This document shows positions 618 to 23,172 of a stretch of 24,000 nucleotides of DNA, in pieces. The position numbers were made by a program, and so were the translations under genes. The notes below the pieces were generated by a model that searched no databases, was not told where the DNA came from, and saw only the letters and a list, made by a program, of their open reading frames with translations. Within the stretch, counting starts at the first letter, position 1. Every line of letters starts with the position of its first letter. Source of the DNA: Citrobacter pasteurii (GTDB lineage: Bacteria > Pseudomonadota > Gammaproteobacteria > Enterobacterales > Enterobacteriaceae); the NCBI RefSeq assembly GCF_000826205.1, contig NZ_CDHL01000025.1; one strand, written 5' to 3'.

Positions 618-698
618 CTTCCGTTCCGACCGGAGCGTAGCCCGGTCAGTTCTGCATTCCCCTCGAACCTGGACACTCAGGTTATTCCGTCCAGTTCT
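618..698 (+). repeat. 43-nt intergenic repeat family, copy R1 (degenerate copy 618-655 + full copy 656-698)
   Basis: 656-698 ATTCCCCTCGAACCTGGACACTCAGGTTATTCCGTCCAGTTCT aligns ungapped with 1742-1784 at 33/43 positions. The preceding ...GGTCAGTTCTGC (644-655) repeats the 3' end of the unit. Confidence 0.7.
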
Positions 699-788
699 TT
701 TTGTTATTATTAACTATATGTGGCCTAGAGCAGAATTTGATCGATAAACGGTTAGGCCATTTGAGAGGCCTTTTTAGGAGTTATTCGT

Positions 789-1670
789 ATGAAAGATGAA
801 GTAAAAAGATTAAAACCACTTCCGGAAGTTCTAAGGAGATTGTTTTCTCTATCTGGTAATTTATGTTGCTTCCCTGGATGCGGTCAGTCAATGATAGATC
901 CCTCCGGCAATTTTGTGGGCCAGGTTTGTCATATTGAAGCAGCCAATACGGGTGGGGAGCGATTTAATGACAAGATGTCGAACGAGGATAGGCGCAGCTT
1001 TGATAACTTAATGTTACTATGTTACCCGCATCATATTGAAACAAATGATACAGTAAAATATGATGTTCTATCCTTAAAAAAGATGAAAGAAGAACATGAA
1101 AAAATCTTCTCCGATGATTTAATTGCCAACAAAATATTATTAAGCTTGAAGGATTACACCATAGATAGCTCGTTCAAAAAAGTATCAAATCTAAAAAATC
1201 TGTACAAAACTGTTTTTCCAGAGAATTATAAAATGGCTGAAGATGAAATGAATGATGCCGTAAATGCTTTTAATTCATCTATTGCCAAGTATTTATCATT
1301 AACTCCGTACTCAAGGAAAGTATTTGCTTGTGGAATAGCAAGATCAAATCACCCGTACAGTCTTTACCGTATAGATAATGATTCATTATATGTTGATGTA
1401 ACTGAGGTATGTAGAGCATTTGGTCGTGAAACAGATGATAGCGATATTCACAACTCTTTTAATGAAATTATAGCTAAGAATCTCATGCTCATCTCTGAGG
1501 TTAACATACACGTAGATTATGAAGTGGATAGGCTTGTATATACAAACTGCCTTGATCATAACGATTACGATCTAAATATATGGTTATTGCTAAAAAACTA
1601 CTGTAAAGAATCACAGATTGATATACGAAACTATCTTAGTGACTTAAACTTTAGTGGCTTAGATGATTGA
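789..1670 (+). CDS. HNH endonuclease-domain protein with unknown C-terminal domain (293 aa)
   Basis: AGGAG lies 8 nt upstream of the ATG. The N-terminus reads CCFPGCGQSM...GQVCHIEAANTGGERFN...FDNLMLLCYPHHIE, which is the CxxC / His / Asn / HH pattern of HNH (beta-beta-alpha-Me) nucleases. The C-terminal ~170 aa are unassigned. Confidence 0.75.
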   Translation: MKDEVKRLKPLPEVLRRLFSLSGNLCCFPGCGQSMIDPSGNFVGQVCHIEAANTGGERFNDKMSNEDRRSFDNLMLLCYPHHIETNDTVKYDVLSLKKMKEEHEKIFSDDLIANKILLSLKDYTIDSSFKKVSNLKNLYKTVFPENYKMAEDEMNDAVNAFNSSIAKYLSLTPYSRKVFACGIARSNHPYSLYRIDNDSLYVDVTEVCRAFGRETDDSDIHNSFNEIIAKNLMLISEVNIHVDYEVDRLVYTNCLDHNDYDLNIWLLLKNYCKESQIDIRNYLSDLNFSGLDD

Positions 1671-1702
1671 ATGGAAGTCTTTTTTTCAATCCAAAACCGA
1701 CT

Positions 1703-1723
1703 GGCCGCAGCAGCGGCCTTTCT
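1703..1723 (+). terminator. rho-independent terminator of the HNH gene
   Basis: GGCCGC (1703-1708), loop AGCA, GCGGCC (1713-1718), then TTTCT. It sits 33 nt after the stop codon. Confidence 0.6.
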
Positions 1724-1741
1724 ACTGTTATGACACCTTTA

Positions 1742-1784
1742 ATTCCACACGCAGTTAGACATAAAGGTAATTCCGTCCAGTTCT
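1742..1784 (+). repeat. 43-nt intergenic repeat family, copy R2
   Basis: ATTCCACACGCAGTTAGACATAAAGGTAATTCCGTCCAGTTCT matches R3 at 37/43 positions and R1 at 33/43. The upstream TTTA is also shared with R3. Confidence 0.8.
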
Positions 1785-1821
1785 GCTGGCTGTGCAAGAT
1801 CTGGCCTGGTATATTTACTGT

Positions 1822-2070
1822 ATGGAAATCCTAATCGCTCTGACCATTGCCGCCGTTCCTGCTGCTTATGTGGTATGGACTCGCTATTTCCGCATTTTCC
1901 CGCTGTCCTATTTCGGCATAGAGAATGTACAAAGGGTTGCCAAATGGGAAAGCCCCGAATGGCGCGAACGTGTGTTTGCACGCGGGGGGATGACCAGTAA
2001 CGAGTGGATCAGGATTAATACCCGCCAACTTGAAGCTATCAACGCAGAGCTACGCCGCCGGAATCTTTAA
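1822..2070 (+). CDS. hypothetical small protein with N-terminal transmembrane helix (82 aa)
   Basis: ATG at 1822 inside ORF 1792..2070. MEILIALTIAAVPAAYVVW is hydrophobic, and the tail is basic. A weak hairpin plus T6 lies at about 2090-2112. The gene is flanked by R2 and R3. Confidence 0.45.
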   Translation: MEILIALTIAAVPAAYVVWTRYFRIFPLSYFGIENVQRVAKWESPEWRERVFARGGMTSNEWIRINTRQLEAINAELRRRNL

Positions 2071-2125
2071 CTTTCTTGATAGCTTCATCAGGCTGCGCCA
2101 GCGGCTTTTTTGCGCCCCCCGTTTA

Positions 2126-2168
2126 ATTCCCCGCGCAGTTAGACATAAAGGTAATTCTGTCTAGCTCA
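2126..2168 (+). repeat. 43-nt intergenic repeat family, copy R3
   Basis: ATTCCCCGCGCAGTTAGACATAAAGGTAATTCTGTCTAGCTCA matches R2 at 37/43 positions in the same orientation. Confidence 0.8.
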
Positions 2169-2169
2169 C

Positions 2170-2190
2170 AAAAAAAGCCGCTTTCGCGGC
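2170..2190 (-). terminator. rho-independent terminator of the DinJ-like gene
   Basis: The minus strand reads GCCGC-GAAA-GCGGC followed by a run of 7 T, 35 nt after the stop codon. Confidence 0.8.
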
Positions 2191-2224
2191 TGTTTGAGCA
2201 GTATTTGTATTTATTCAACCACTT

Positions 2225-2752
2225 TCATTTCTTGGTTGAGTGAACTACATGAGCCACTTTATCCCCAAATTCCTGGACAGCAAATACAAAACTCGTTTGT
2301 TCTAGCGTAGAAAACGTTACTTTCTCATAGCCATACCCGAAATTTTGAGAATCAACAAGAATACTCATAGCTTTATTAAAGGCATTCAGCGCCAGTTCAG
2401 CATCCCGATTATTAGAAAGAAGGCTGATTTTCTCTTTGGCACAACGGTACAGTGCATCGAGGCGGCGGTAATATTCCTTCAGTTTGACCTTTTCAATCCC
2501 GTCCGGCTGTTCAGTCCATACCTGTAAATTAGAGATCACTGCGAGAGCTTCAGCTAACATATCTGAACTTTCACGTAACAAATCATGCGGCGTTTTTACA
2601 ATGGAGGTGATCACAAACGGCAGTTTCTTCTGCTCAGCAAGATACTGATAAAAAGCCGCAATAGCCTGAGTTTGGCTGATATTCAGCAGCTTCAGTACTT
2701 CATCAGCCTGGTTCTTTATATCATCGTCAATACGTGCATTAATGGTCGCCAT
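2225..2752 (-). CDS. RelB/DinJ-type ribbon-helix-helix N-terminal domain fused to unknown helical C-terminal domain (175 aa)
   Basis: AAGGAG RBS. The N-terminus MATINARIDDDIKNQADEVLKLLNISQTQAIAAFYQYLAEQKKLPF closely follows the DinJ pattern (ARIDEDLKNQA...LPF). No toxin ORF is adjacent. Confidence 0.7.
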   Translation of the reverse strand: MATINARIDDDIKNQADEVLKLLNISQTQAIAAFYQYLAEQKKLPFVITSIVKTPHDLLRESSDMLAEALAVISNLQVWTEQPDGIEKVKLKEYYRRLDALYRCAKEKISLLSNNRDAELALNAFNKAMSILVDSQNFGYGYEKVTFSTLEQTSFVFAVQEFGDKVAHVVHSTKK

Positions 2753-2785
2753 CGTTCCGCTCCTTGAGGTGATTACATATCAACC

Positions 2786-2838
2786 ATAATGCATATTTGC
2801 ATTACACGCAACAAAAATAATGCAAATATGCATTACAC
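2786..2838. promoter_or_regulatory. paired operator repeats upstream of the DinJ-like gene
   Basis: ATAATGCATATTTGCATTACAC (2786-2807) and ATAATGCAAATATGCATTACAC (2817-2838). The 18-nt cores TAATGCATATTTGCATTA and TAATGCAAATATGCATTA are exact reverse complements of each other. They overlap a minus-strand TTGTTG-17-CATTAT promoter candidate. Confidence 0.6.
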
Positions 2839-2866
2839 TGCTTTTTTACCTTCCTTTTTGCCACAT

Positions 2867-2891
2867 TGGACGTTCCGGTGATTCCGTCCAT
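2867..2891 (+). repeat. 43-nt repeat family, partial copy R4 (3' half only)
   Basis: TGGACGTTCCGGTGATTCCGTCCAT matches positions 15-39 of R1 at 20/25. Confidence 0.5.
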
Positions 2892-3060
2892 TAAAACAGA
2901 ACATAATCGGATTGCCGTCTACGCTAAACAACAGACATACGAAGAAATGCTATTTACCCTGGACATTCCGGCACTATCGGAAAAAATGTCCAGAGAAGCA
3001 TTTATGCAGATCGTATTTATTCGGGTTGACAGAAAGCTAAAATTATAGGCTGATTTAATC

Positions 3061-3840
3061 TCAACCCCGTCCTTTCAGCATGGCCACCGCATCCGCTTCG
3101 GGCATCTGAAACTGCACCCGGTGACGCGCCGCGACATCGAGCGCAAACACCTTCGTATAGACCTCCGTCGAGCTGATCGACTTGTGGCCCATCAGCGCCT
3201 GCAGCACCTTCAGTGGAATGCCGGCATACAGCATATGCATGGCGTAAGAGTGGCGGAACGTGTGCGGCGTCACCGGTACCGAGAACGTCACGCCGTCGGC
3301 CGCCGCGGTATCTACCGCTTCATTCAGCCAGGTGCGAACCGTGCGGTCGGTGATCTCCCAGATACGCGCCTTCTCCGTTCGCCCGGTGCGTTTGTTGCGC
3401 CGCTCCAGTGGAATTTTCAGCGTGGCCACCATCATCTGCAGCTGGCTGACGTACTGGTGATCGGATAGCGGAACCAGACGATGTGCCTGGATACCGGCGG
3501 GCGCGCGTCCGGCGGTCCGGGCTGCTTTTTCCGCGCGCTGTTTCAGCGTGGCCAGCTGCACAAACGGATACGGCGGCGCCAGCGAAAAATCCCCTCGAGT
3601 AAGCGCCAGTGCCTCGTTAACGCGGGCGCCCGTATTCCAGAGGGTGGCCAGCAGCATCTTACGGTGCAGATCGGGCACATAGTGGAGCAGGGCGCTCACT
3701 TCCGGCGCCAGCAGGTATTTCGGCAGTTCGTCCTGAACGAGCGCCATCTGCCGTAAGGCCAGTGCTGCGGGATAGTCGATGGTCACAGGCAGGGCGGCCA
3801 TTGAGCCCTGAGAAGTAACTGAAGGTATGAGGCCAGTCAT
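3061..3840 (-). CDS. tyrosine site-specific recombinase (plasmid resolvase/integrase, XerC/D-like, 259 aa)
   Basis: Catalytic signature: WNTGARVNEAL (Arg), HTFRHSYAMHML (HxxR), GHKSISSTEVYTKV (Tyr nucleophile). The gene is GC-rich. It resembles ResD-type multimer resolution recombinases of F-like plasmids. Confidence 0.9.
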   Translation of the reverse strand: MTGLIPSVTSQGSMAALPVTIDYPAALALRQMALVQDELPKYLLAPEVSALLHYVPDLHRKMLLATLWNTGARVNEALALTRGDFSLAPPYPFVQLATLKQRAEKAARTAGRAPAGIQAHRLVPLSDHQYVSQLQMMVATLKIPLERRNKRTGRTEKARIWEITDRTVRTWLNEAVDTAAADGVTFSVPVTPHTFRHSYAMHMLYAGIPLKVLQALMGHKSISSTEVYTKVFALDVAARHRVQFQMPEADAVAMLKGRG

Positions 3841-4936: not shown

Positions 4937-5364
4937 GTCCTTTCCTCAGTTGAATAGTTAGCCGTGCAATTTTACCACACCTCAATCATCGCCAGATGAG
5001 TGCCACTCTGTTGAGAAAGTGACTTTCACAAAAATGAATTTCACATACTGAAATAATAAGCAGACATATAAACACTCTATTAAATTACCGGGCGGCGGTT
5101 TTCAGATGATCCGATTTTCTGGCGTATAACAACTTTCCGGAAGTGTACCACGGTGAGGGAATAAGCAAAGTGTCCTTCCCGGTGGTGTTCGTGCGGTCAC
5201 GGGGAAGCGGATAAGCACAACATATAGATGAGAACCCAGCTGATAGAGTGGCATATCTTGTGTTTTCAGGCCGCAGCGCGTCGGAGGTGGCGTGAAGATC
5301 CTTTTCTGGTATTTTTCGGATCTCAGCAGAAAAAAGAAGCGTCGTGCGGAATCACATGATGATA

Positions 5365-5381: not shown

Positions 5382-5478
5382 AAATTGACTGAATGAAATA
5401 ATGGTGATTAACTCAGATAGAGCTAATTCATTCATGCCACTTACCTCACCTCAAACACCACCGATGACAGGAGCGACC

Positions 5479-6573
5479 ATGCTGAGCCAGCTGACCCTGC
5501 GCTTTCACAAAAAACTCATCGAGGCACTGAAAATGCGTGCCGGCCACGAAAACACCTCGGTGAACGCCCTCGCAGAACGTTTTCTCGACAGCGCGCTGAA
5601 AACCGCCGCCCCGGAGGACAGCTATCTGGCGCTGCTCGCCGATCGCGATGAAGCCATCCGCGGGATGTACCGCAAAATTATGCTCGGCCAGACCTTCGGC
5701 CTGGCGCCGGTCACCCGTGACGAACTGCGGCTGCTGCTCGGACTGGCCCAGGAAGGCTGTGTCCACGGCCGCAACCGGCTGGTCACCCGCCCGGCCCTGC
5801 AGATGCTGCTCGACATCACCGGGGAACTGCTGGCCTGGCAGGCGGAGCAGGGGATACCTATCGATCTGCCGTACCTGCAGGGCATTTTTCACCTGCAGGG
5901 AACGGCGCCAGCCACCGAATACGCGGACTTTCTCGCGACGCTGCGCCAGCGCCCGATCATCGACCAGGGCTATGCCGAACGGCTGCTGCGCCCGCTGGCG
6001 TCACAGTGCTTCGATCTGCGCACCTTCCCGGATGAGGCCCTGGCGCAGATCTTCACCCTGCCACGCCTGCAGGCGCTGTTCCCGCTGGCGCTGCGGGGTG
6101 AACCCTGGAGTGAGGCGGATGCACGCCAGCTGGCGGAGGCCACCCGCCCCGTGATCCCGGCAGTCCGGGAGACAATAGAGGCAGGCACGCTGCGGTTCGA
6201 TATTCAGGTGGACGGACAGGCGATAGCGTCACGGCCCGGCGGCTGGTATGAGGTTCCGCGCCTGCACCTGCTGATCACCGGTCAGGATTTTGTCGTGCCG
6301 TTCGGCTGGACTCATTTCTCGGAGCTGCTGGGCCTGTTCACCCTGTATGCCCGCCATCCGGACGCACTCGCGCATGGCCATCACGGCGAGCACGTGATGT
6401 TCTCACCGCCGGGCAATGCCTCAAAGGACGGCTTTTTTGGCCTCGATGGGCTGCGGATCTTCCTGCCACCGGAGGACTTCGACACGCTGGTCCGTGAGCT
6501 GGTTACCCGCTGCAGTGAAGGGATGCTGGCTGATGCGCTGAATGGCCTGCGCGGCCTGTACGGAGATTTGTAA
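5479..6573 (+). CDS. ribbon-helix-helix (Arc/CopG-like) N-terminal domain protein with large unknown C-terminal domain (364 aa)
   Basis: AGGAG lies 5 nt upstream of ATG 5479, which is internal to ORF 5401..6573. MLSQLTLRFHKKLIEALKMRAGHENTSVNALAERFL has the strand-helix-helix pattern. The stop codon is 2 nt before the next ATG. Confidence 0.7.
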   Translation: MLSQLTLRFHKKLIEALKMRAGHENTSVNALAERFLDSALKTAAPEDSYLALLADRDEAIRGMYRKIMLGQTFGLAPVTRDELRLLLGLAQEGCVHGRNRLVTRPALQMLLDITGELLAWQAEQGIPIDLPYLQGIFHLQGTAPATEYADFLATLRQRPIIDQGYAERLLRPLASQCFDLRTFPDEALAQIFTLPRLQALFPLALRGEPWSEADARQLAEATRPVIPAVRETIEAGTLRFDIQVDGQAIASRPGGWYEVPRLHLLITGQDFVVPFGWTHFSELLGLFTLYARHPDALAHGHHGEHVMFSPPGNASKDGFFGLDGLRIFLPPEDFDTLVRELVTRCSEGMLADALNGLRGLYGDL

Positions 6574-6575
6574 CC

Positions 6576-8828
6576 ATGAGCCAGACAGCAGAACAACAAC
6601 CATGCGGAAAGCACCCCGATCGGGCCGTCAGCACAGCGGAAGAAGACTGCTATGGGTTCACGCACATTGCCACCGAGTTAGCCCGTGCCATTCAGGGGAT
6701 CGGCCGGGAGGGCAGTGCCGTGATCGGTATCGAAGGCGCCTGGGGAACGGGGAAAACCAGCCTCCTGAATCTGCTGCGTATTGCACTGGAGGCACAGAAA
6801 GAAGACCGGACGTATGTGCTGAGCATCTCCCCCTGGCTTGACGGCAGCGATACGCCACTGGTGGCGTCACTCCTGCTGCCGGTCGCCGGCATCATTGCCC
6901 GGGAAGAAGAAAGCCGGCTTTCGGCCGTAGAACGGGCGAACCTCAAAGAGAAAAACGCGCTGACCGGCACCGCCCGTACGCTCATGGACTATACCCGGGC
7001 CACGGCCCGGCGGCTGGCGCCGCTCGCGCAGCTGGCCGCCGTGGTTCCCGGTATCCCCGATGCCAGCGGTGGCCTGAAAGCCGTGGCCGATTCGGACTGG
7101 CTGAAAGAAAAAGAAAAAACCACGGCAGAAATGCGTGCCGGCATTGCAGAGAAAATCGCAGAACTGGATCTGAGCTTCATTATCCTGCTGGACGATCTCG
7201 ATCGTCTTGAGCCGGCCCAGGCCGTGGAGGTGATCCGCCTGGTGAAGTCGGTCGCGGATTTTCCCCGCTTCCGCTACCTGCTCTGCTATGACAAAGCGGT
7301 GCTGGCAGAGGCCATCAGCCAGGGGCTGGGCGTGGCCGACGGCAGCCTGTATCTGCAGAAAATCGTGCAGATTTCCTTCGGGCTGCCGCGACCGGAGGCC
7401 TTTGTGCTGCGCCGGCAATTTCTGGAGGAGGCCATCCGGTTATACACGTCGGTGAACGGGCGTATGCCAGGGACCAGTGTGCAGGCGGCCCTGACGAGCG
7501 TCGCCGACATTTATGGGGCCGCACTGAAAACCCCCAGGGAGGTCCGGATGGTCATTAATGCGCTGGCCTTCCGCTATGCGGGTCTGCGGGATTATGTCTA
7601 TTTCCCGGATCTGTGCTTCCTGCAGTTGCTCCGCACCACGAATGCCGGCCTGTATGACTGGGTGGAAGCCTACCTGTCTGAACGGGCGGTGGTGGCGTCG
7701 GGTGAAGGGCATATCAGTGAACAAGAGCAGGAAGTACTGACTGAGAAACTGCGGACTCACCTGTCGCCGTATTTTCCTGGCGAAGCACATACCGTCGATG
7801 CGCTGAGTCAGTGGGTTCCGGGGATCTCCACCGGGGTGACGGACCAGGCCATCCATCTGTTCAGAACTGACAGCGAACAGGAAAAAGCCATACTGACCGC
7901 CGGAAAACGGCTGGGCAGCCAGGCCTACTGGCGCTACTATTTCGCCTTCTCCGCCCCGCAGAACGTCCTGCAGCCGGCGATTTTTGACCACATCTTCGAA
8001 GTGGCCGGCCATCCCGGAAAGCAGCGGGAACTGGCTGAACTGTTGTTCGGGTATATCCAGCGCCAGAACCTGTCTTCACGGACCTGGTTTGAGCACATTC
8101 TGAGCCAGCTGACCGTGCCGCTCATCGCCTCACGGACTCCCGGTGAATGCCGCGGTTTGCTGCAGTTCTTCCTGGACTACGGTGATGAAATACTGAAACG
8201 CTATCAGACGGAGGATCCGCGGTTTGAGCTGCATGATCTCGACACCTACAGCGTCGCTGACCGGCTCATCTTCCGGCTGTTACGGGATAACACGAACGGT
8301 ACCCGGGTCTTCCTGACAGAGCAGGCCCGGGACGGCCGGGCCTGGTACTGGATGGCAGAATATGTGCGCCACCTGCTGTGGCAACACGGGATGGCCGGGG
8401 ACGTGTCAAAAGATGATCAGGAAGAGTGGATGGCTCCGGACACATTAGAGACGTTTCGGGACGCGCTGGGGGCCAGGCTGAACAGTGCCGCCATCACCGA
8501 TACGCTGCCGGCGTTCCCCCTGCTGAACAGGTATATCTGGGCATGGTGTGACATCAGCGGGCTGGACGCCGTCCGGGAATGGGTGACCGTTCAGAGTCAG
8601 GAGGATGAGACTTTTCTGCAGTTGCTTCTGCAGCTGCGGGATCATCGCACTCGTTCAGTACAGGGGCATTACCGCACCCTGAAACTGGCCAGCATGACCG
8701 ACATTCTGGGGGACGTGGCGCAGATTAAAGCCCGTATCAGGTGTATCAAAAAGACCGGGCAGTATGCAGAACAGGTTGCCCTGGTCGAGCGAGCCATTGC
8801 GGGAACCCGGGGATCGCTAAGGCCCTGA
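6576..8828 (+). CDS. KAP-family P-loop NTPase (750 aa)
   Basis: Walker A is IGIEGAWGTGKTSLLN and Walker B is FIILLDDLDRLEP. The KAP-typical blocks ISPW, VKSVADFPRFRYLLCYD and YLQKIVQISFGLP are present. A long helical C-terminal region follows. Confidence 0.9.
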   Translation: MSQTAEQQPCGKHPDRAVSTAEEDCYGFTHIATELARAIQGIGREGSAVIGIEGAWGTGKTSLLNLLRIALEAQKEDRTYVLSISPWLDGSDTPLVASLLLPVAGIIAREEESRLSAVERANLKEKNALTGTARTLMDYTRATARRLAPLAQLAAVVPGIPDASGGLKAVADSDWLKEKEKTTAEMRAGIAEKIAELDLSFIILLDDLDRLEPAQAVEVIRLVKSVADFPRFRYLLCYDKAVLAEAISQGLGVADGSLYLQKIVQISFGLPRPEAFVLRRQFLEEAIRLYTSVNGRMPGTSVQAALTSVADIYGAALKTPREVRMVINALAFRYAGLRDYVYFPDLCFLQLLRTTNAGLYDWVEAYLSERAVVASGEGHISEQEQEVLTEKLRTHLSPYFPGEAHTVDALSQWVPGISTGVTDQAIHLFRTDSEQEKAILTAGKRLGSQAYWRYYFAFSAPQNVLQPAIFDHIFEVAGHPGKQRELAELLFGYIQRQNLSSRTWFEHILSQLTVPLIASRTPGECRGLLQFFLDYGDEILKRYQTEDPRFELHDLDTYSVADRLIFRLLRDNTNGTRVFLTEQARDGRAWYWMAEYVRHLLWQHGMAGDVSKDDQEEWMAPDTLETFRDALGARLNSAAITDTLPAFPLLNRYIWAWCDISGLDAVREWVTVQSQEDETFLQLLLQLRDHRTRSVQGHYRTLKLASMTDILGDVAQIKARIRCIKKTGQYAEQVALVERAIAGTRGSLRP

Positions 8829-9057
8829 CAGGGCCTCAGGCATACTCAGTGGATCAGCGTTATCCGGATGCTGACCATCACAAAGATGCGCTCTGCCGAC
8901 GGGAGGCGAGCATTATCCCGTAAGGTGACCCGCGTGTGACAGGAGGAAGAACAGGCGCTGCGCAGGATACTGTCTGTCCTGTCCAGCGTCTGAACGCCAC
9001 CTCAGTTCTGCTTCCACACTTCCCTTTGACGTCGCACATGAAAAAATGCCGTACCGG

Positions 9058-9647: not shown

Positions 9648-9889
9648 TTCCCTTTCTCCCCTGACTTCCATCACGCCGCTCAGATAGGAAACTTCAACCA
9701 TATAGTAGTAAGGATCCGACTTTACCTTTTTTCGGATCTCCGGTGAAAACCAGGCCATGTATGTAACTTCACTGCGATACTTTCGCATCAATTATTTAAT
9801 TTGACTCATTTAATATAGTTTGACTTCTATTAATCGGATGTGAGATAAGGATTGTCATAATAATCGGTTTGACAAAAGTGGACATTCTG

Positions 9890-10647: not shown

Positions 10648-11580
10648 ATGCCACAGAATACACCCGTAAATACCGTACTGCCTCTCATTTCCTCCCCGCG
10701 CCTGGGTAGCTACATTGTGACATTCAAACCTGTTGGTGATCACGAGCTGTACGGGACATACATCTGGAGTCAGCTGGCCAGCGGTTCCGTATACCCTCTT
10801 CTGCAGAATCTGGAAATTACGCTGCGTAATGCTGTCGATGCAGAGGGCAGAAGACGCTTTGGCGAAAAATGGTGGGATAATCCCAGTCTCTACTGTGGGA
10901 GACCTATCACCCAGACTGCTTTTTACGGAAAAATTCTCCGGGCCATCGATAACCTGAATGAAGCATGGAAGAAAAAGCAACGGAAAAGAAAAAAACCAAC
11001 TCATCCGTTGCCTCAGTGGAGCCATGATCAAATCATCGCTGCGACCGACTTCAGTGCATGGCATTTCATACTGAATAATGACTTTGCCGCGCCAAGCACT
11101 TCTCAAAACCAACATTACCTCTGGCCAGTTTCAACAGGCAGAGTTTTCAGAACATACAACAGCGTGTCAACAAACGAAAAGACAGCCCGTTCGAAAATGC
11201 GTGATCTGGTTGTGGAAATGCGTGAGTACAGGAACCGGCTTTCGCACAATGAACCTATCTGGGTTAAAGCGCCTAACGTCAGCGACGCAGCGACTGCAAT
11301 TGACACTATCCGGAATAAAATTCGAAAAATAGAGTCGTTAATTACCATCATCTCACCGGATAAACACCTGATAATGGAAAAAATGGGGCTGTTTAGTCAG
11401 GCGCTGCGGACCTGCTCCGTACAGGAACTGGCGATCCACAATTTTACCCATGCCAGTTGCTCACTGACGCGGCGTCAGAAACGTAATCTCCGGGGAGTGA
11501 TATCCGCAGCGGAAAAACAAAACCAGTCACAGGTGTTTGAGTACGCCAGCCGGATATTTTCACTCCATCGGGTCAGATAA
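10648..11580 (+). CDS. Abi_2 family (AbiD/AbiF-like HEPN) abortive-infection protein (310 aa)
   Basis: N-terminal SSPRLGSYI...YIWSQLASGSVYPLLQNLEITLRNAV and C-terminal YRNRLSHNEPIW (the R-N-x-x-x-H HEPN motif) match the Abi_2 pattern. TAAGG RBS. Confidence 0.8.
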   Translation: MPQNTPVNTVLPLISSPRLGSYIVTFKPVGDHELYGTYIWSQLASGSVYPLLQNLEITLRNAVDAEGRRRFGEKWWDNPSLYCGRPITQTAFYGKILRAIDNLNEAWKKKQRKRKKPTHPLPQWSHDQIIAATDFSAWHFILNNDFAAPSTSQNQHYLWPVSTGRVFRTYNSVSTNEKTARSKMRDLVVEMREYRNRLSHNEPIWVKAPNVSDAATAIDTIRNKIRKIESLITIISPDKHLIMEKMGLFSQALRTCSVQELAIHNFTHASCSLTRRQKRNLRGVISAAEKQNQSQVFEYASRIFSLHRVR

Positions 11581-12350: not shown

Positions 12351-12478
12351 TGTCCTTCCTCAGTCAGAGAACCTGCTTCGTAAATAAAGACATATTTTTT
12401 GCCACATATCCTGTTCAGGTACAACAGATCAGTTTCTGCCTTTTTCCGGATCTGACCGCAAAAAGAGAGCGGGTGTCT

Positions 12479-13288: not shown

Positions 13289-13831
13289 ATGCCTTACTAC
13301 AATGGCCGCTGGCACCTCTATGACGAACGGGAACGGCGGGAATACGGAGAACGAAAACGGCAGGAGCGCAGCCAGCAATGGCAGGCGAACTGGATCAGCC
13401 GGCAGGGACTGAAAGCCCGACTCTGGACGGACAAGGCCATCGCGACATTCCTGCCCCCGCCGGAGCACGCGGGCCCCATCCGGGCCTGGCGGAGAAAGGA
13501 TGTGCTGACGGCAGAAGAAAAGCCGGACTTTCAGGCGTGGATAGCGACGCGCCGTGACTGGCTTGATGCGCGCTGCCGGCTGCCGGAGATCACCTACACC
13601 ACTTACGGCCTGCTGGCAATTGGCTGGAACCGGCGGGCCCCGGACAAACCGATCCGCTACCAGCGGCTGGTCTGGAATGAGGCGAAACAAGCGCTGACGG
13701 ACTACTCACGGCAGTGGCATAACTCGCCGTTTACCGGCGCGGATTTTGAAGAGGACGATCCGGATGACGTCGCCTGCGCGATCTTCGAATGGTATCTGCG
13801 CCAGTGCAGTACATCACCGGTACCGGAATAG
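13289..13831 (+). CDS. hypothetical protein (180 aa)
   Basis: GGAGG RBS before the ATG at 13289. GC-rich coding pattern. A degenerate paralogous fragment lies at 15806-16010. Confidence 0.65.
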   Translation: MPYYNGRWHLYDERERREYGERKRQERSQQWQANWISRQGLKARLWTDKAIATFLPPPEHAGPIRAWRRKDVLTAEEKPDFQAWIATRRDWLDARCRLPEITYTTYGLLAIGWNRRAPDKPIRYQRLVWNEAKQALTDYSRQWHNSPFTGADFEEDDPDDVACAIFEWYLRQCSTSPVPE

Positions 13832-15805: not shown

Positions 15806-16010
15806 ATGGCAAGCCGCGCTGATAGGCCTGTTTGATGAAAGGGAGCGGCGGGAATACGGTGAACGAAAACGGCAGAAATGAAGCCCGGGATGGCATGCGA
15901 TCTGGATCAACCGGCTGGAACTGAAAGCACATCTCAGGACGGATAACTTGGTTGCGGTGTGTTTAACCGCTGGCGTGGTGACCACTATCGGGATATGGCA
16001 GAGAAGATGA
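15806..16010 (+). pseudogene. degenerate fragment paralogous to the 5' part of 13289..13831
   Basis: 15828-15878 encodes LFDERERREYGERKRQK then TGA, compared with LYDERERREYGERKRQE in the intact gene. DNA similarity continues (CTGGATCA.CCGGC.GGAACTGAAAGC) with frame breaks. Confidence 0.6.
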
Positions 16011-16143: not shown

Positions 16144-17676
16144 TTAAAATCCTGAGTTTAAATCGTACGTGATATCTACTGCCGGATCATCCACTTTGTA
16201 CGCCTGTTTGCTTAAACCGTAGTCCTCTGTACTGGATATACCATCAAACAGGTTATAGGGACTAATTGAATCGCCGACGATCCCCATCCAGGTGGCCAGG
16301 CCATTAACAAACATCAGGCCAGATTTCCGGGATGTAACGATGGTTCTCTTGTCATCATCAGATGATATCTTAACCAAAGGAATATCATGATGATATTTAC
16401 TGGCGTAGTTATTATTTAATTTAATCTCGCCATTTATTTCACGATGAACCAGTCCATGATCTGAAAAATAAATCATAGAAAAAGATCGACCACTGTTTTT
16501 GCTCTTCAGTATATTATAGGTCTCTTTTAAGAAATCATCCGTCTGCCTGATACTCGAAATATAGCACGCAATATAGTTGTTAATTCTGGAGCGTGATCTG
16601 TACTGATCGTCCATTTCCTTAATTCTGTCGCAGACATTCGGATGAGACCCCATGGTATGCAACACGATAAATCGTTTTTTATTGGTACTCTTTGATAAGA
16701 CACTCGTTAACTTCCGTAACAGCGCTGTGTCCTGAATGTTGGATTCATTGTATCCCTGGAATTTAGTAAAGTAGGAGTATTGCGCATTTTTAGCTATCGC
16801 AGATACGGGCGAATCCCATTCACCAAACTGGCCCTGATTTGATAACCAGTAGGACTCGATACCAGCCCGGTTTACCAGTCCCATGATATTCTGGTTATAG
16901 TGTGGCTGCCAGTTGTGAGGATCCCCCTGTGTCAGCATCATACGCAAAGAACCTATGGTATAGGTACCGCCGGACGTCAGGCCATTGACGATGTCTGCAT
17001 TCACACTGTCCAGAAAGGGTGTATTACCGACAGGATAACCATATACATGAAAATAGTCCCTCCTGGCACTTTCTCCAATAATCAGAATGTAGTCATCATA
17101 TTTCGAATTATTTGTCAGATGAACTTCACCCCAGTCATTTTTGTTTACGTATTTTGATAGTTCAGCCTGATCCTCTTTATAATCGTTAATAGACCCCCCT
17201 GCTTTTTTGATAAAAACAAGTGCGCCAGATGATATGGTGAGAATAATTGCAACCATCATCACATAAGCTTTGTTTTTAATCGGCCTGATTTTAAATTTAT
17301 ATGACAACAGGTGTAACATATAAAAAATAACAGGGATTAAAAATGCATATACATATGATTTAGACGGTATCAATGTAAGAAATTCGAGACTTTCCTGACC
17401 GTCAGTAGCGAATAAAGATGATACATACTGATAAGACGGAAACCCGTAAGTAAACCCCACAGGGGCATACAGGCCAACAATTATCGATACCGGAAGCGTG
17501 ATCAGTCTATATGATTTTTTTGACCCCAGCGTAAAACTTATTAACAGCAGGAGAACAATGATGTTAAAGACCTCCGGATGTGAGTCACCGGTTGCTCTTA
17601 AGGTAAATTTTGACAATAAAAAAAGAGGAACAAGAAGAAATGTAATCAATATGTACTGCTTGTATTTTTTTTGCAT
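16144..17676 (-). CDS. sulfatase-family membrane phosphoethanolamine-transferase-like enzyme (510 aa)
   Basis: About 5 N-terminal TM helices. The periplasmic domain has IIGESARRDYFHVYGY, TSGGTYTIGSL, HTMGSHPNV, YISSIRQTDDFL and IYFSDHGL, which parallel the EptA/OpgE/MCR conserved blocks. It is clearly not MCR-1 itself. AT-rich. Confidence 0.8.
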   Translation of the reverse strand: MQKKYKQYILITFLLVPLFLLSKFTLRATGDSHPEVFNIIVLLLLISFTLGSKKSYRLITLPVSIIVGLYAPVGFTYGFPSYQYVSSLFATDGQESLEFLTLIPSKSYVYAFLIPVIFYMLHLLSYKFKIRPIKNKAYVMMVAIILTISSGALVFIKKAGGSINDYKEDQAELSKYVNKNDWGEVHLTNNSKYDDYILIIGESARRDYFHVYGYPVGNTPFLDSVNADIVNGLTSGGTYTIGSLRMMLTQGDPHNWQPHYNQNIMGLVNRAGIESYWLSNQGQFGEWDSPVSAIAKNAQYSYFTKFQGYNESNIQDTALLRKLTSVLSKSTNKKRFIVLHTMGSHPNVCDRIKEMDDQYRSRSRINNYIACYISSIRQTDDFLKETYNILKSKNSGRSFSMIYFSDHGLVHREINGEIKLNNNYASKYHHDIPLVKISSDDDKRTIVTSRKSGLMFVNGLATWMGIVGDSISPYNLFDGISSTEDYGLSKQAYKVDDPAVDITYDLNSGF

Positions 17677-18386: not shown

Positions 18387-19424
18387 TCATGTGTTCACGG
18401 GGCGTTTAAAATTTTTATTTCTCATACCAAACCGAAGAAACGGTTTTTCAAGCAAATAATAGCAAACAATGCCTCCGGTTATGCCAACAACAACCGAACC
18501 TAAAAAATAACATATCGCCAGGTTTTTATTCAAAATCTGCCCGAAGATTATGACAAAAACCACATACCATATCCTTTGAGAGACTGGATGAGACAAGTAG
18601 AGCGAATACGATATTTCCCCGAAGAACAAAGGTAATTTGCTTATGTTCCGATTAAAAAAATTCTCTAAAGAGACAACTCCGGCCACCATCATAAAGGCGG
18701 GTATCCCGTAAATCCAAAATCGCGAGGTCTGGTCAGCATTACAGGTCAATAGAATTGTAAAAGATAATATTACTAATCCCCCTCCCACCTTTACGCTGGC
18801 TTTCAATAAGTAACTTCTGAAGTAACCTAACCAGACACCGGCCAGAAACTCTAACATAATGGGGTTTGTATAGGTACTGAGCACCGGCCCTTTGAAATCA
18901 AAAAACATTCCACAGCACGTCAGGCCGCCCACAGAAATAAATATAAAAGCAATTCTTTTCTTAATTTCCTTCAAAAAAAGGCTAAGCCCGAATATAAAAT
19001 AAAAAAACATCTCATAGACCAGGGTCCACCCTATGGTATAGACCGGCGTAATGTCTCCAACATCCGGATTCAGGGTGGGAATGAGCAGAAATGATTTTAA
19101 GATAAATAATAGGTCAAGCCCCCTTGAGTTAAAGAACAGAGAGGGTACAAGAATAGCGGCCAAAACAATAGAAAGCGTAAACATCCAATAAAGCGGAATA
19201 ACCCTGAAAATTCGGGATATCCAGAATGACAGCGTATTATTTTTTTTACTTTCTGTTGTCACCCACATCACAAATCCGGATATTACAAAAAAAATATCAA
19301 CGCCGAATTCACCCACAGGATTACTGAAATAAGGAGAAACAACTGACATAACCATCGAATGATAAACTATAACTAAAAATGCCGCTAATCCACGAAGATA
19401 TTGAATGCCGTAATACTTTTCCAC
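18387..19424 (-). CDS. acyltransferase family 3 integral membrane O-acyltransferase (345 aa)
   Basis: IQYLRGLAAFLVIVYHS and GVDIFFVISGFVM are hallmark motifs, and there are about 10 TM segments. AT-rich. Confidence 0.85.
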   Translation of the reverse strand: MEKYYGIQYLRGLAAFLVIVYHSMVMSVVSPYFSNPVGEFGVDIFFVISGFVMWVTTESKKNNTLSFWISRIFRVIPLYWMFTLSIVLAAILVPSLFFNSRGLDLLFILKSFLLIPTLNPDVGDITPVYTIGWTLVYEMFFYFIFGLSLFLKEIKKRIAFIFISVGGLTCCGMFFDFKGPVLSTYTNPIMLEFLAGVWLGYFRSYLLKASVKVGGGLVILSFTILLTCNADQTSRFWIYGIPAFMMVAGVVSLENFFNRNISKLPLFFGEISYSLYLSHPVSQRIWYVVFVIIFGQILNKNLAICYFLGSVVVGITGGIVCYYLLEKPFLRFGMRNKNFKRPVNT

Positions 19425-22918: not shown

Positions 22919-23172
22919 AGATTCATCTCATTTCACTTTACAAAAAATAGAAAAATTAAGATCATTAGTTCGAGTTTTATAAGTTGATCCGGCCTAGTAT
23001 AACTTTAAAACTCATTACAATAGCATCCTGAGCCATGAAGGCCTCACAATGACAGCAGGCAAACTTAAGTGTTTGTTAGTAAGACTGTTAAGTCGTCATG
23101 GTTGAGTGTGTTAGACCCCGTTGAACATTGAATTATTCCGTCATGGATCAATTCTGCGCGAAGCGTTCAAAA

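Follow-up and report, generated by a model that had tools for sequence, protein, structure and literature searches.

The described systems that come closest to the locus presented here are the integrons, the ResD/rfsF multimer resolution system of the F plasmid (with pSLT RsdB and pSDL2 Rsd/crs), the CUP/ArdK regulon of IncN plasmids and the pdif modules of Acinetobacter. Our subject is a family of short direct repeats, the junction element, in a 24-kb stretch of Citrobacter pasteurii plasmid DNA (the window; positions 61271–85270 of NZ_CP077263.1, the 95.6-kb plasmid unnamed2 of strain FDAARGOS 1424). Four copies, R1 to R4, separate three single-gene cassettes there, and the last is followed by a second palindrome, S2, and by resD, which encodes a tyrosine recombinase. 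The comparative evidence suggests, with a probability that we put at about 0.5, that the copies are recombination sites where single-gene cassettes enter, leave and swap, in an array anchored at its last copy and S2 beside the ResD-family gene, and that a long form of the element supplies a promoter.

As in integrons, a co-oriented array of mostly single-gene cassettes with repeated sites has a tyrosine recombinase gene at one end and a distinct, here putative, primary site (S2) beside it; the cassettes reassort between replicons, with defence, toxin and unknown genes abundant among them. The attC sites of integrons, however, are 57–141 nt long, are conserved in structure rather than sequence and are recombined as folded single strands, whereas the junction element is a sequence-conserved, apparently double-stranded palindrome of ~45 nt. 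The window recombinase is ResD-like, lacks the N-terminal domain and scores 60.6 and 46.8 bits against integron-integrase cut-offs of 265 and 435. Integron cassettes are promoterless and read from Pc, while here 42 of 198 distinct copies carry a predicted promoter arm (D1) and 39 of 90 cassette families have their gene reversed; the F-type recombinase gene, moreover, stands at the 3' side of the array and not divergently at its start. An identity with attC and IntI was rejected on the integrase scores and on the form of the element.

ResD is published as the rfsF resolvase and as a transcriptional repressor, according to the title of Lane et al. (1986) as cited in PMC5587640, and passages of PMC8004404 and PMC9412624 describe rfsF–resD as the switch point of the sets of genes called 'Delta' and 'Col' in IncI1 plasmids and as an entry of foreign DNA into IncR plasmids. 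The window shares with this system a recombinase 88% identical to F ResD (223/253 residues, BLASTP), and, judged from an alignment by eye, a putative counterpart of the rfsF inverted repeat, which lies at the syntenic position with pifC on one side and the resD operon on the other. The rfsF site is already known as a border of gene-set switches between IncI1 and IncR plasmids. In contrast to rfsF, our repeats lie on the other side of resD, in several cassette-bounding copies, and share with the F rfsF region only the 8-mer GGCACTAT, at the centre of S2. F and R64 lack the element, F keeping only a degenerate remnant 3' of resD; since positions 2840–3065 of the window have no significant similarity to 40–56 kb of F and neither plasmid holds a copy of the core, the repeats are not copies of rfsF.

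The CUP (conserved upstream) modules of IncN plasmids resemble the element as repeated, co-oriented intergenic modules that, with a promoter and a regulator site, head small accessory and anti-restriction operons; they are under the control of ArdK, which has a 13-nt binding site. They are suspected substrates of rearrangement, and the plasmids that have them in their maintenance region carry resD as well. Unlike the element, the CUPs of R46 are 300–450 nt long, always head operons and have no polar link to a recombinase gene, and they are confined to IncN plasmids. Their sequences are unrelated to it, its profile has no match in R46, and an identity of the two was rejected. In Acinetobacter, short pdif sites also bracket small exchangeable plasmid modules, including toxin-antitoxin and resistance genes. 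These are 28-bp XerC-6-XerD sites of alternating orientation used by the host Xer proteins, whereas our sites are direct and linked to a plasmid-encoded recombinase, and their core is unlike dif or cer when compared by eye with their consensus sequences.

Results

The repeats of the window belong to a plasmid-borne family

The window carries, in order, a decayed copy, R1, an HNH gene, R2 with the promoter arm, a gene for a small membrane protein, R3, a reversed gene for a RelB/DinJ-N protein, R4, S2 and resD (Table 1). The preliminary description had recognised most of this, and its coordinates for R1, R2 and R3 were reproduced exactly, as were the identities of R2 with R3 (37/43), of R1 with R2 (33/43) and of the half copy 2867–2891 with R1 (20/25). 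The inverted pair TGGAC-N14-GTCCA is present in 4/4 copies, the pattern GACRNWMMGGTNATTCYGTCYA matches all of R1–R4 on the plus strand, and every copy is intergenic, R4 overlapping just an unannotated 60-codon TTG open reading frame. The HNH, membrane-protein and DinJ-like genes are each bounded by repeats, and 170 nt separate the end of R4 from the stop codon of the recombinase gene.

Allowing up to 2 mismatches, the core pattern occurs at 4 places in the window (R1–R4) and at none in 100 shuffles. A profile of R1–R3 run with nhmmer over the whole 95.6-kb plasmid returned these three copies with E below 1e-10 (1e-10 to 1e-13), R4 weakly (E ~0.2) and nothing else, and a chance origin was rejected on both counts. 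The tandem copy reported at 618–655 is a decayed one: only its right end, CCGGTCAGTTCTGC, can be aligned (12/14 to the right end of R2), and nhmmer did not recover it. Two further fragments that had been pointed out, at 9003–9019 and 23110–23142, were found by no profile or pattern search and are best taken as chance, the one near the NusG-like gene included; a target of an RfaH-like (ops) or LuxR-type factor found no support. The repeats are genuine copies of a plasmid junction element.

This element forms a family with a common architecture that is essentially restricted to plasmids. BLAST with R2 or with the corresponding unit of pKpQIL found it in at least 1,082–1,221 PLSDB records, at 1–4 places each and nearly always in unannotated intergenic DNA. 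It is carried by more than 1,000 enterobacterial plasmids of IncF, IncI-like, IncX and IncN-like types, in Klebsiella, Escherichia, Enterobacter, Citrobacter, Salmonella, Serratia and Erwinia, and scans with the core gave 112 metagenomic stretches and 4 in IMG/VR. In a set of 5,426 complete E. coli genomes the element occurs at 613 places, of which 606 are plasmid-borne and 7 chromosomal; it is therefore not a chromosomal repeat of the repetitive extragenic palindrome type (REP/BIME), a possibility that the preliminary description had raised. For further comparison we used 210 loci with 200 distinct copies (198 in the promoter-arm count), 88 of the loci having more than one copy.

The element is ~45 nt long and can be written TTAATTCC-N~12-TGGACAttcAGGTnATTCTGTCCA; alignment of the 200 distinct copies gave the consensus ttaattcc....c...tTGGACATTCAGGT.ATTCTGTCCAg. 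Its conserved part is the TTAATTCC box followed by a 24-bp palindrome, TGGACAttc-AGGTnA-TTCTGTCCA, whose 9-bp inverted arms (TGGACATTC and GAATGTCCA type) enclose the 6-bp centre AGGTnA. As read from the sequence, this arrangement of arm, spacer and arm is the one that core sites of tyrosine recombinases have. The left-flank class seen most frequently is the rho-independent terminator of the preceding gene (GCGCCAGCGGCC-T-run), and many copies are preceded by GCGCCAGCGGC-T-run hairpins homologous to the terminator of cassette 2. Across the 200 copies, arm positions -1/20 showed no compensatory change and 3/16 only a weak association, an A·C mismatch persists in the putative stem of most copies, and a scan against Rfam gave nothing above noise and no structure signal. 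A known RNA family, a structured RNA and a single-stranded DNA hairpin were rejected on these grounds; because the palindrome lacks compensatory changes, a double-stranded protein site appears likelier. A search of the literature by motif strings and topic, with subscription literature outside its scope, turned up no description of the element; with its arrays it looks like an integron-like platform of gene exchange that is new to the literature searchable here.

Cassettes reassort at the element

Copies lie on one strand in 87 of the 88 multi-copy loci, at a median spacing of 551 nt (10th–90th percentile 309–1445). The 167 segments between copies can be grouped as 99 cassette families, and one and the same family is met again beside different neighbours. 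The longest open reading frame runs with the copies in 51 families and against them in 39 (39/90, 43%); since cassette genes face either way, the strict co-orientation of the sites is not a result of gene direction.

Related plasmids hold the cassettes of the window between the same repeats and next to other neighbours, a comparison that had been proposed for this locus. The segment 670–1791, which opens with the R1 palindrome and extends slightly beyond R2, was matched at 95.5% in 18 other plasmids; these are ~80 kb long and belong to Enterobacter, Citrobacter and Klebsiella. In one of them, at locus L211, the HNH cassette is part of another array (Abi / FRG / HNH / ...), and in L113 and L211 the right flank of R1 recurs together with this cassette behind another left flank. 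Cassette 3 was matched in other plasmids at 86–88% over 2228–2836, 2228–2861 or 2276–2890, the last match stopping exactly at the end of R4, and its relatives (families F43, F56 and F76) are reversed in other arrays as well. In the C. freundii plasmid NZ_CP033743 homology on the resD side begins at 2866, the left edge of R4, and the segment from R4 to resD is also present in pKpQIL and in loci L057, L158 and L206.

The flanks of the 200 distinct copies sort into 89 classes on the left and 111 on the right, which occur in 158 combinations; of the left classes 21 pair with at least two right classes, of the right classes 29 with at least two left ones, and for 3 class pairs all four combinations were seen. 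Under strict flank criteria, polymorphisms of the core tracked the left flank to position ~7 and the right flank from ~15, pointing to 8–15, and the free central base of the core was partly linked to each flank. Pairs with exact flanks began to diverge at the left edge (-3), the centre (~6–12) or the right edge (+22). As these pairs and a looser clustering scatter the breakpoints from -3 to +22, a crossover pinned to one nucleotide was rejected and we claim no fixed exchange point. We conclude that exchange occurs, as far as the flanks indicate, within the 24-bp core or at its edges, with no single nucleotide fixed.

A domain scan of 20 cassette proteins gave AbiD/Abi_2, a DpnII-MboI nuclease fold, FRG (PADLOC PDC-S15), T5orf172, DUF2971, DUF4145 and a PemK/MazF toxin, with HEPN below threshold. 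Inspection by eye of 70 cassette proteins of at least 80 aa recognised as recurrent families Abi (5), HEPN-like proteins with R-x4-H (~7), RelB/DinJ-N fusions (4), DUF2971 (3) and a 160-aa membrane protein (5). Judged by this content, the arrays resemble a stockpile of compact genes for defence and addiction.

The arrays are polar and linked to recombinase genes

To the right of the last copy, 25 of 41 loci have a ResD-family gene within 3.5 kb; to the left of the first copy, 0 of 47 do (Fisher 1.7e-11; the loci were found by DNA motif alone, and the samples are not independent). Three subfamilies of the gene follow the arrays, each with a fixed geometry: one for a 271-aa ResD, on the plus strand, starts 264–265 nt after the last copy (15 loci); the F-type gene, on the minus strand, lies 170–330 nt after it (11 loci); and a type with 48% identity, also on the minus strand, ~2.9 kb from it (10 loci). 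The window recombinase matches the Pfam family Phage_integrase and falls below the Xer as well as the integron-integrase cut-offs.

The second palindrome, S2, trails the last copy by 74–79 nt or ~141 nt in 44 of 98 metagenomic loci. It is conserved beside both main ResD subfamilies and in the variants with serine recombinases, and it is built of the same TGGACA/TGTCCA hexamers as the palindrome of the element; it is a candidate for the primary site of the recombinase.

The arrays of L211, L212 and the IncX1 plasmids end at a serine recombinase gene (~5–8 loci versus ~38 with ResD-family genes). L211 and L212 keep the segment that otherwise follows resD and that comprises, besides the last copy and S2, a third inverted repeat GTCTGTTCAGAA..TTCTGAACAG and the tail GGGGTTGGACAAGCC..GCGCGTCAGG, after which homology breaks. 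Because this ResD-type tail is retained and homology breaks right after it, the serine recombinase appears to have replaced resD in L211 and L212, although ResD could also be just a neighbour. The retained tail was located at L211 7247–7615, L212 5591–5960 and L092 ~13878, and it is also present, in the absence of an array, 3' of many ResD-F genes.

A separate observation concerns the loci with the 271-aa ResD (L093 13479–13486 and ~25 related ones), where GTCCA and ATTAGTTACAACAT enclose 6 hypervariable nt (GACCCT, TACCTC and GATTTC, for example) amid near-identical flanks; these could be an alternative crossover spacer.

The long form carries a predicted promoter

In 42 of 198 distinct copies, R2 included, the element continues rightward into the D1 arm, GTTCTGCTGGCWGYGCGRGATCTGGCCTGGTATAAT, in which ~35 nt are conserved up to an extended -10, after which the sequences split into many different 5' leaders and genes. 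The arm is absent from R1, R3 and R4 and was overlooked by a promoter scan that depends on a -35 box. We infer that D1 is a portable outward promoter. The shared promoter element that the preliminary description had considered thus holds for the long form, and for that form only, and its suggested LuxR-type and RfaH-like regulators are unsupported. The centre of the palindrome lies ~56 nt upstream of the predicted D1 transcription start, and as the element is upstream of the D1 -10, a D1 transcript would exclude it. The element also occurs with downstream genes reversed or absent. In the window, the ATG of the cassette 2 gene sits 7 nt past the D1 -10 and has no Shine-Dalgarno sequence; because of this, the cassette 2 mRNA may be leaderless.

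Discussion

If the copies are recombination sites, a circle with one copy would integrate at a resident copy and automatically generate direct repeats; recombination between two direct copies would in turn excise a cassette, and plasmids could hence exchange cassettes among themselves. Recombination at the element would be site-specific, and the recombining enzyme is probably ResD. In the long form, the extended -10 promoter of the right arm would drive the next cassette, and a protein bound to the palindrome could also regulate the D1 promoter, F ResD being known both as a resolvase and as a repressor; the long form would thus have promoter and operator activity. Of the alternatives in the preliminary description, sites of cassette exchange is the one best supported by the comparisons.

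Several observations weigh against sites served by ResD. The exchange points are scattered over the core, at its left edge, its centre and its right edge, which fits short-homology recombination no less than a canonical crossover. The site to which F ResD has been mapped, rfsF, does not resemble the core, and the window has an rfsF-like region elsewhere (~5205–5262). The element is found at only 6 of 80 ResD-F loci of representative genomes, always 3' of resD; IncX1 plasmids have the element and yet no ResD homologue; and it is a serine recombinase, not ResD, that closes the arrays in L211, L212 and IncX1. The same core is kept beside ResD proteins of only 43–49% identity, and identical central bases in adjacent copies are only weakly depleted (20.5% versus 27.5% expected, P ~0.04). 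Finally, if every copy were a good ResD substrate, the arrays should be unstable.

The explanation that survives best next to cassette recombination, and that we nevertheless consider unlikely, is that the element is an operator/promoter module whose palindrome binds a plasmid or host transcription factor in control of accessory genes, on the model of the IncN CUPs and the IncP KorB operators, with the reshuffling a by-product of RecA-dependent or short-homology recombination and no dedicated recombinase involved. The IncN CUP repeats set a precedent for promoter modules that also recombine (PMC5371602). The same extended -10 at a fixed distance in 42 of the 198 copies, the conservation of sequence rather than structure, the persistence of the element on plasmids without ResD and the spread of exchange points across the conserved stretch all agree with such a module. 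The D1 promoter is, however, absent from most copies, and no regulator that all the host plasmids share came to light. Co-orientation is strict in spite of the 39 gene-reversed families among 90 and of a copy, R3, placed between two terminators, and the polarity towards the recombinase gene, with one copy placed at the 3' end of resD, makes no sense for regulation. The identity that the core offers is, besides, only ~24 bp long, close to the minimum that RecA-dependent recombination needs.

A still less probable explanation is that the copies are true recombination sites of another enzyme (a host recombinase, a serine resolvase or another plasmid protein) and that ResD is their neighbour because arrays grow at the resolution locus. 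The arrays closing at serine recombinases in L211, L212 and IncX1 and the difference between the core and the known F ResD site would be expected in this case. The half-site of Tn3-type res is TGTCYNNTA, and the TGTCC half-sites in the 24-bp and 33-bp palindromes recall such res subsites, as a lead only. The serine recombinases are, on the other hand, a minority, with ~5–8 loci against ~38 of the ResD family; the ResD-type tail GGGGTTGGACAAGCC..GCGCGTCAGG is retained at them, suggesting replacement of resD; and, in the by-eye comparison mentioned above, the core resembles neither dif nor cer.

A self-inserting miniature element (of the miniature inverted-repeat transposable element or REP-like kind) or a functionless duplication scar would account for a short, palindromic, intergenic sequence often placed right after terminators, and the scars of insertion proposed in the preliminary description do fit the decayed-looking 618–655 and possibly R3, but as a general explanation this is hardly credible for an element that is not chromosomal, at which no target-site duplications or terminal repeats were seen, whose orientation is strictly direct in polar arrays and whose core is strongly conserved over hundreds of contexts and genera.

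Returning to cassette recombination, we tentatively suggest, as an extension that is rather less secure than the proposal itself, a second, integron-independent platform of gene capture on plasmids, in which a ResD-family enzyme would insert, excise and swap cassettes at a 24-bp site, some of the sites bearing a portable promoter, and would maintain an anti-phage and addiction stock beside partition and resolution loci. If the exchange is recombinase-driven, clinically important plasmids (pKpQIL-type IncFII(K), IncF, IncX, IncI-like and IncN-like) would trade small genes (defence, toxin and unknown ones) independently of transposons and integrons, and the long-noted variable region beside resD would be explained. 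The ResD family, so far known only for multimer resolution and repression, would gain a role in cassette capture. The 45-nt element would also be a sequence handle to mine hundreds of compact candidate defence genes, those sampled including AbiD, FRG, DUF2971, T5orf172, HEPN-like, DpnII-fold and HNH proteins, and could give engineering a new small pair of site and recombinase and a portable promoter. Were the element an operator/promoter module instead, it would still be a widespread regulatory module of plasmid accessory genes for which the searchable literature gave no description.

Layout of the window and neighbouring features

The IncI-like host plasmid encodes a type IV pilus, with its shufflon, and a NusG-like TraB, and it has psiB and ardA in the leading region. 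The repeat region is flanked by partition genes (parM, and a gene for a ParA-like ATPase just upstream of the window) and by the tyrosine recombinase gene.

Table 1. Features of the repeat region and of the rfsF-like region, in window coordinates
Feature	Position	Strand	Remarks
Decayed copy	618–655	+	CCGGTCAGTTCTGC (642–655) still recognisable; abuts R1
R1, short-form junction element	656–698	+	palindromic core TGGACACTCAGGTTATTCCGTCCA = 670–693
Cassette 1 gene	789–1670	+	293-aa HNH-type nuclease-like protein
Terminator hairpin closing cassette 1	1703–1718	+	just before R2
R2, long-form junction element	1742–1784	+	core 1756–1779
D1 promoter arm of R2 (predicted)	1785–1815	+	GTTCTGCTGGCTGTGC..GATCTGGCCTGG; extended -10: TG 1807–1808, TATATT 1810–1815
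Cassette 2 gene	1822–2070	+	82-aa membrane-type protein
Terminator-like hairpin and T-run closing cassette 2	2092–2112	+	read from sequence
R3, junction element	2126–2168	+	core 2140–2163; both arms mutated, TAGAC..GTCTA
Terminator of cassette 3 gene	2176–2191	-	
Cassette 3 gene, reversed	2225–2752	-	175-aa protein, RelB/DinJ N-terminal domain
Two 27-nt direct repeats upstream of cassette 3 gene	2781–2838		each with palindrome TAATGCATATTTGCATTA
R4, last copy, core only	2867–2890	+	TGGACGTTCCGGTGATTCCGTCCA; left flank of the second class
S2, second palindrome	2959–2993		CTGGACATTCCG-GCACTAT-CGGAAAAAATGTCCAG; TGGACA/TGTCCA hexamers 21 nt apart
resD	3061–3840	-	259-aa tyrosine recombinase: catalytic domain and only ~35 N-terminal residues
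rfsF-like inverted repeat region	5205–5262		GCACAACATATAG..GGCATATCTTGTG; between resD operon and pifC-like gene

The HNH protein of cassette 1 has no Pfam or NCBIfam match; its N-terminus resembles PADLOC PDC-M68A, the SduA N-terminus and the HNH effectors of cyclic oligonucleotide-based antiphage signalling systems (CBASS). Between R1 and its start codon, at 722–775, lie T-run hairpins, TGGCCTAGAG...TTAGGCCA and GGCC-ATTTGAGA-GGCC-TTTTT, a possible attenuator or terminator ahead of the nuclease gene. The membrane protein of cassette 2 found no family match in scans of domain libraries. R3 has no promoter arm and stands between two convergent terminators. The 27-nt repeats upstream of the cassette 3 gene fall outside the junction-repeat family and form a family of their own (D20); they are likely the operator of that gene. 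No toxin partner gene is evident in cassette 3. At 54–92 a terminator is followed by GGCCTTTCTTCTGTCCGTTCTCTCG, with the palindrome absent; the segment resembles the second left-flank class (GGCTTTCTTCCGTTCACA/TTGGAC) and p447-IMP 8762–8800, and it may be the left border of the array.

The rfsF-like region was aligned by eye with F (L086 ~5990–6050) and with R64 (L091 ~5690–5745), where the position of rfsF follows a passage of PMC8004404, and is syntenic in all. Because it is present besides the junction repeats, the host plasmid may hold two different kinds of ResD-associated site. A 22-nt motif, TTTTTCGGATCTCAGCAGAAAA, occurs four times (5312–5333, 9728–9749, 12442–12463 and 17515–17536), once just upstream of the pifC-like gene, and the near-identical TTTTCGGATCTCCGGAGAAA adjoins rfsF in R64 and F; the motif may be a PifC operator or a promoter element. 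Beyond resD (5401–8828 and 10648–11580) there are PifC-like and PifA-like genes (the latter for a P-loop NTPase of the T7 exclusion type) and an Abi-family gene, and because these stand just past resD, the neighbourhood looks, by gene content, like a plasmid defence island.

Farther on, the product of a phosphoethanolamine transferase gene (16144–17676, minus strand) was considered as mcr and rejected, its score lying far under every MCR family cut-off; the gene is near one for an acyltransferase (18387–19424). A 120-nt direct repeat of 81% identity (13315–13434 and 15827–15946, 2.5 kb apart) lies among exonuclease and thermonuclease genes.

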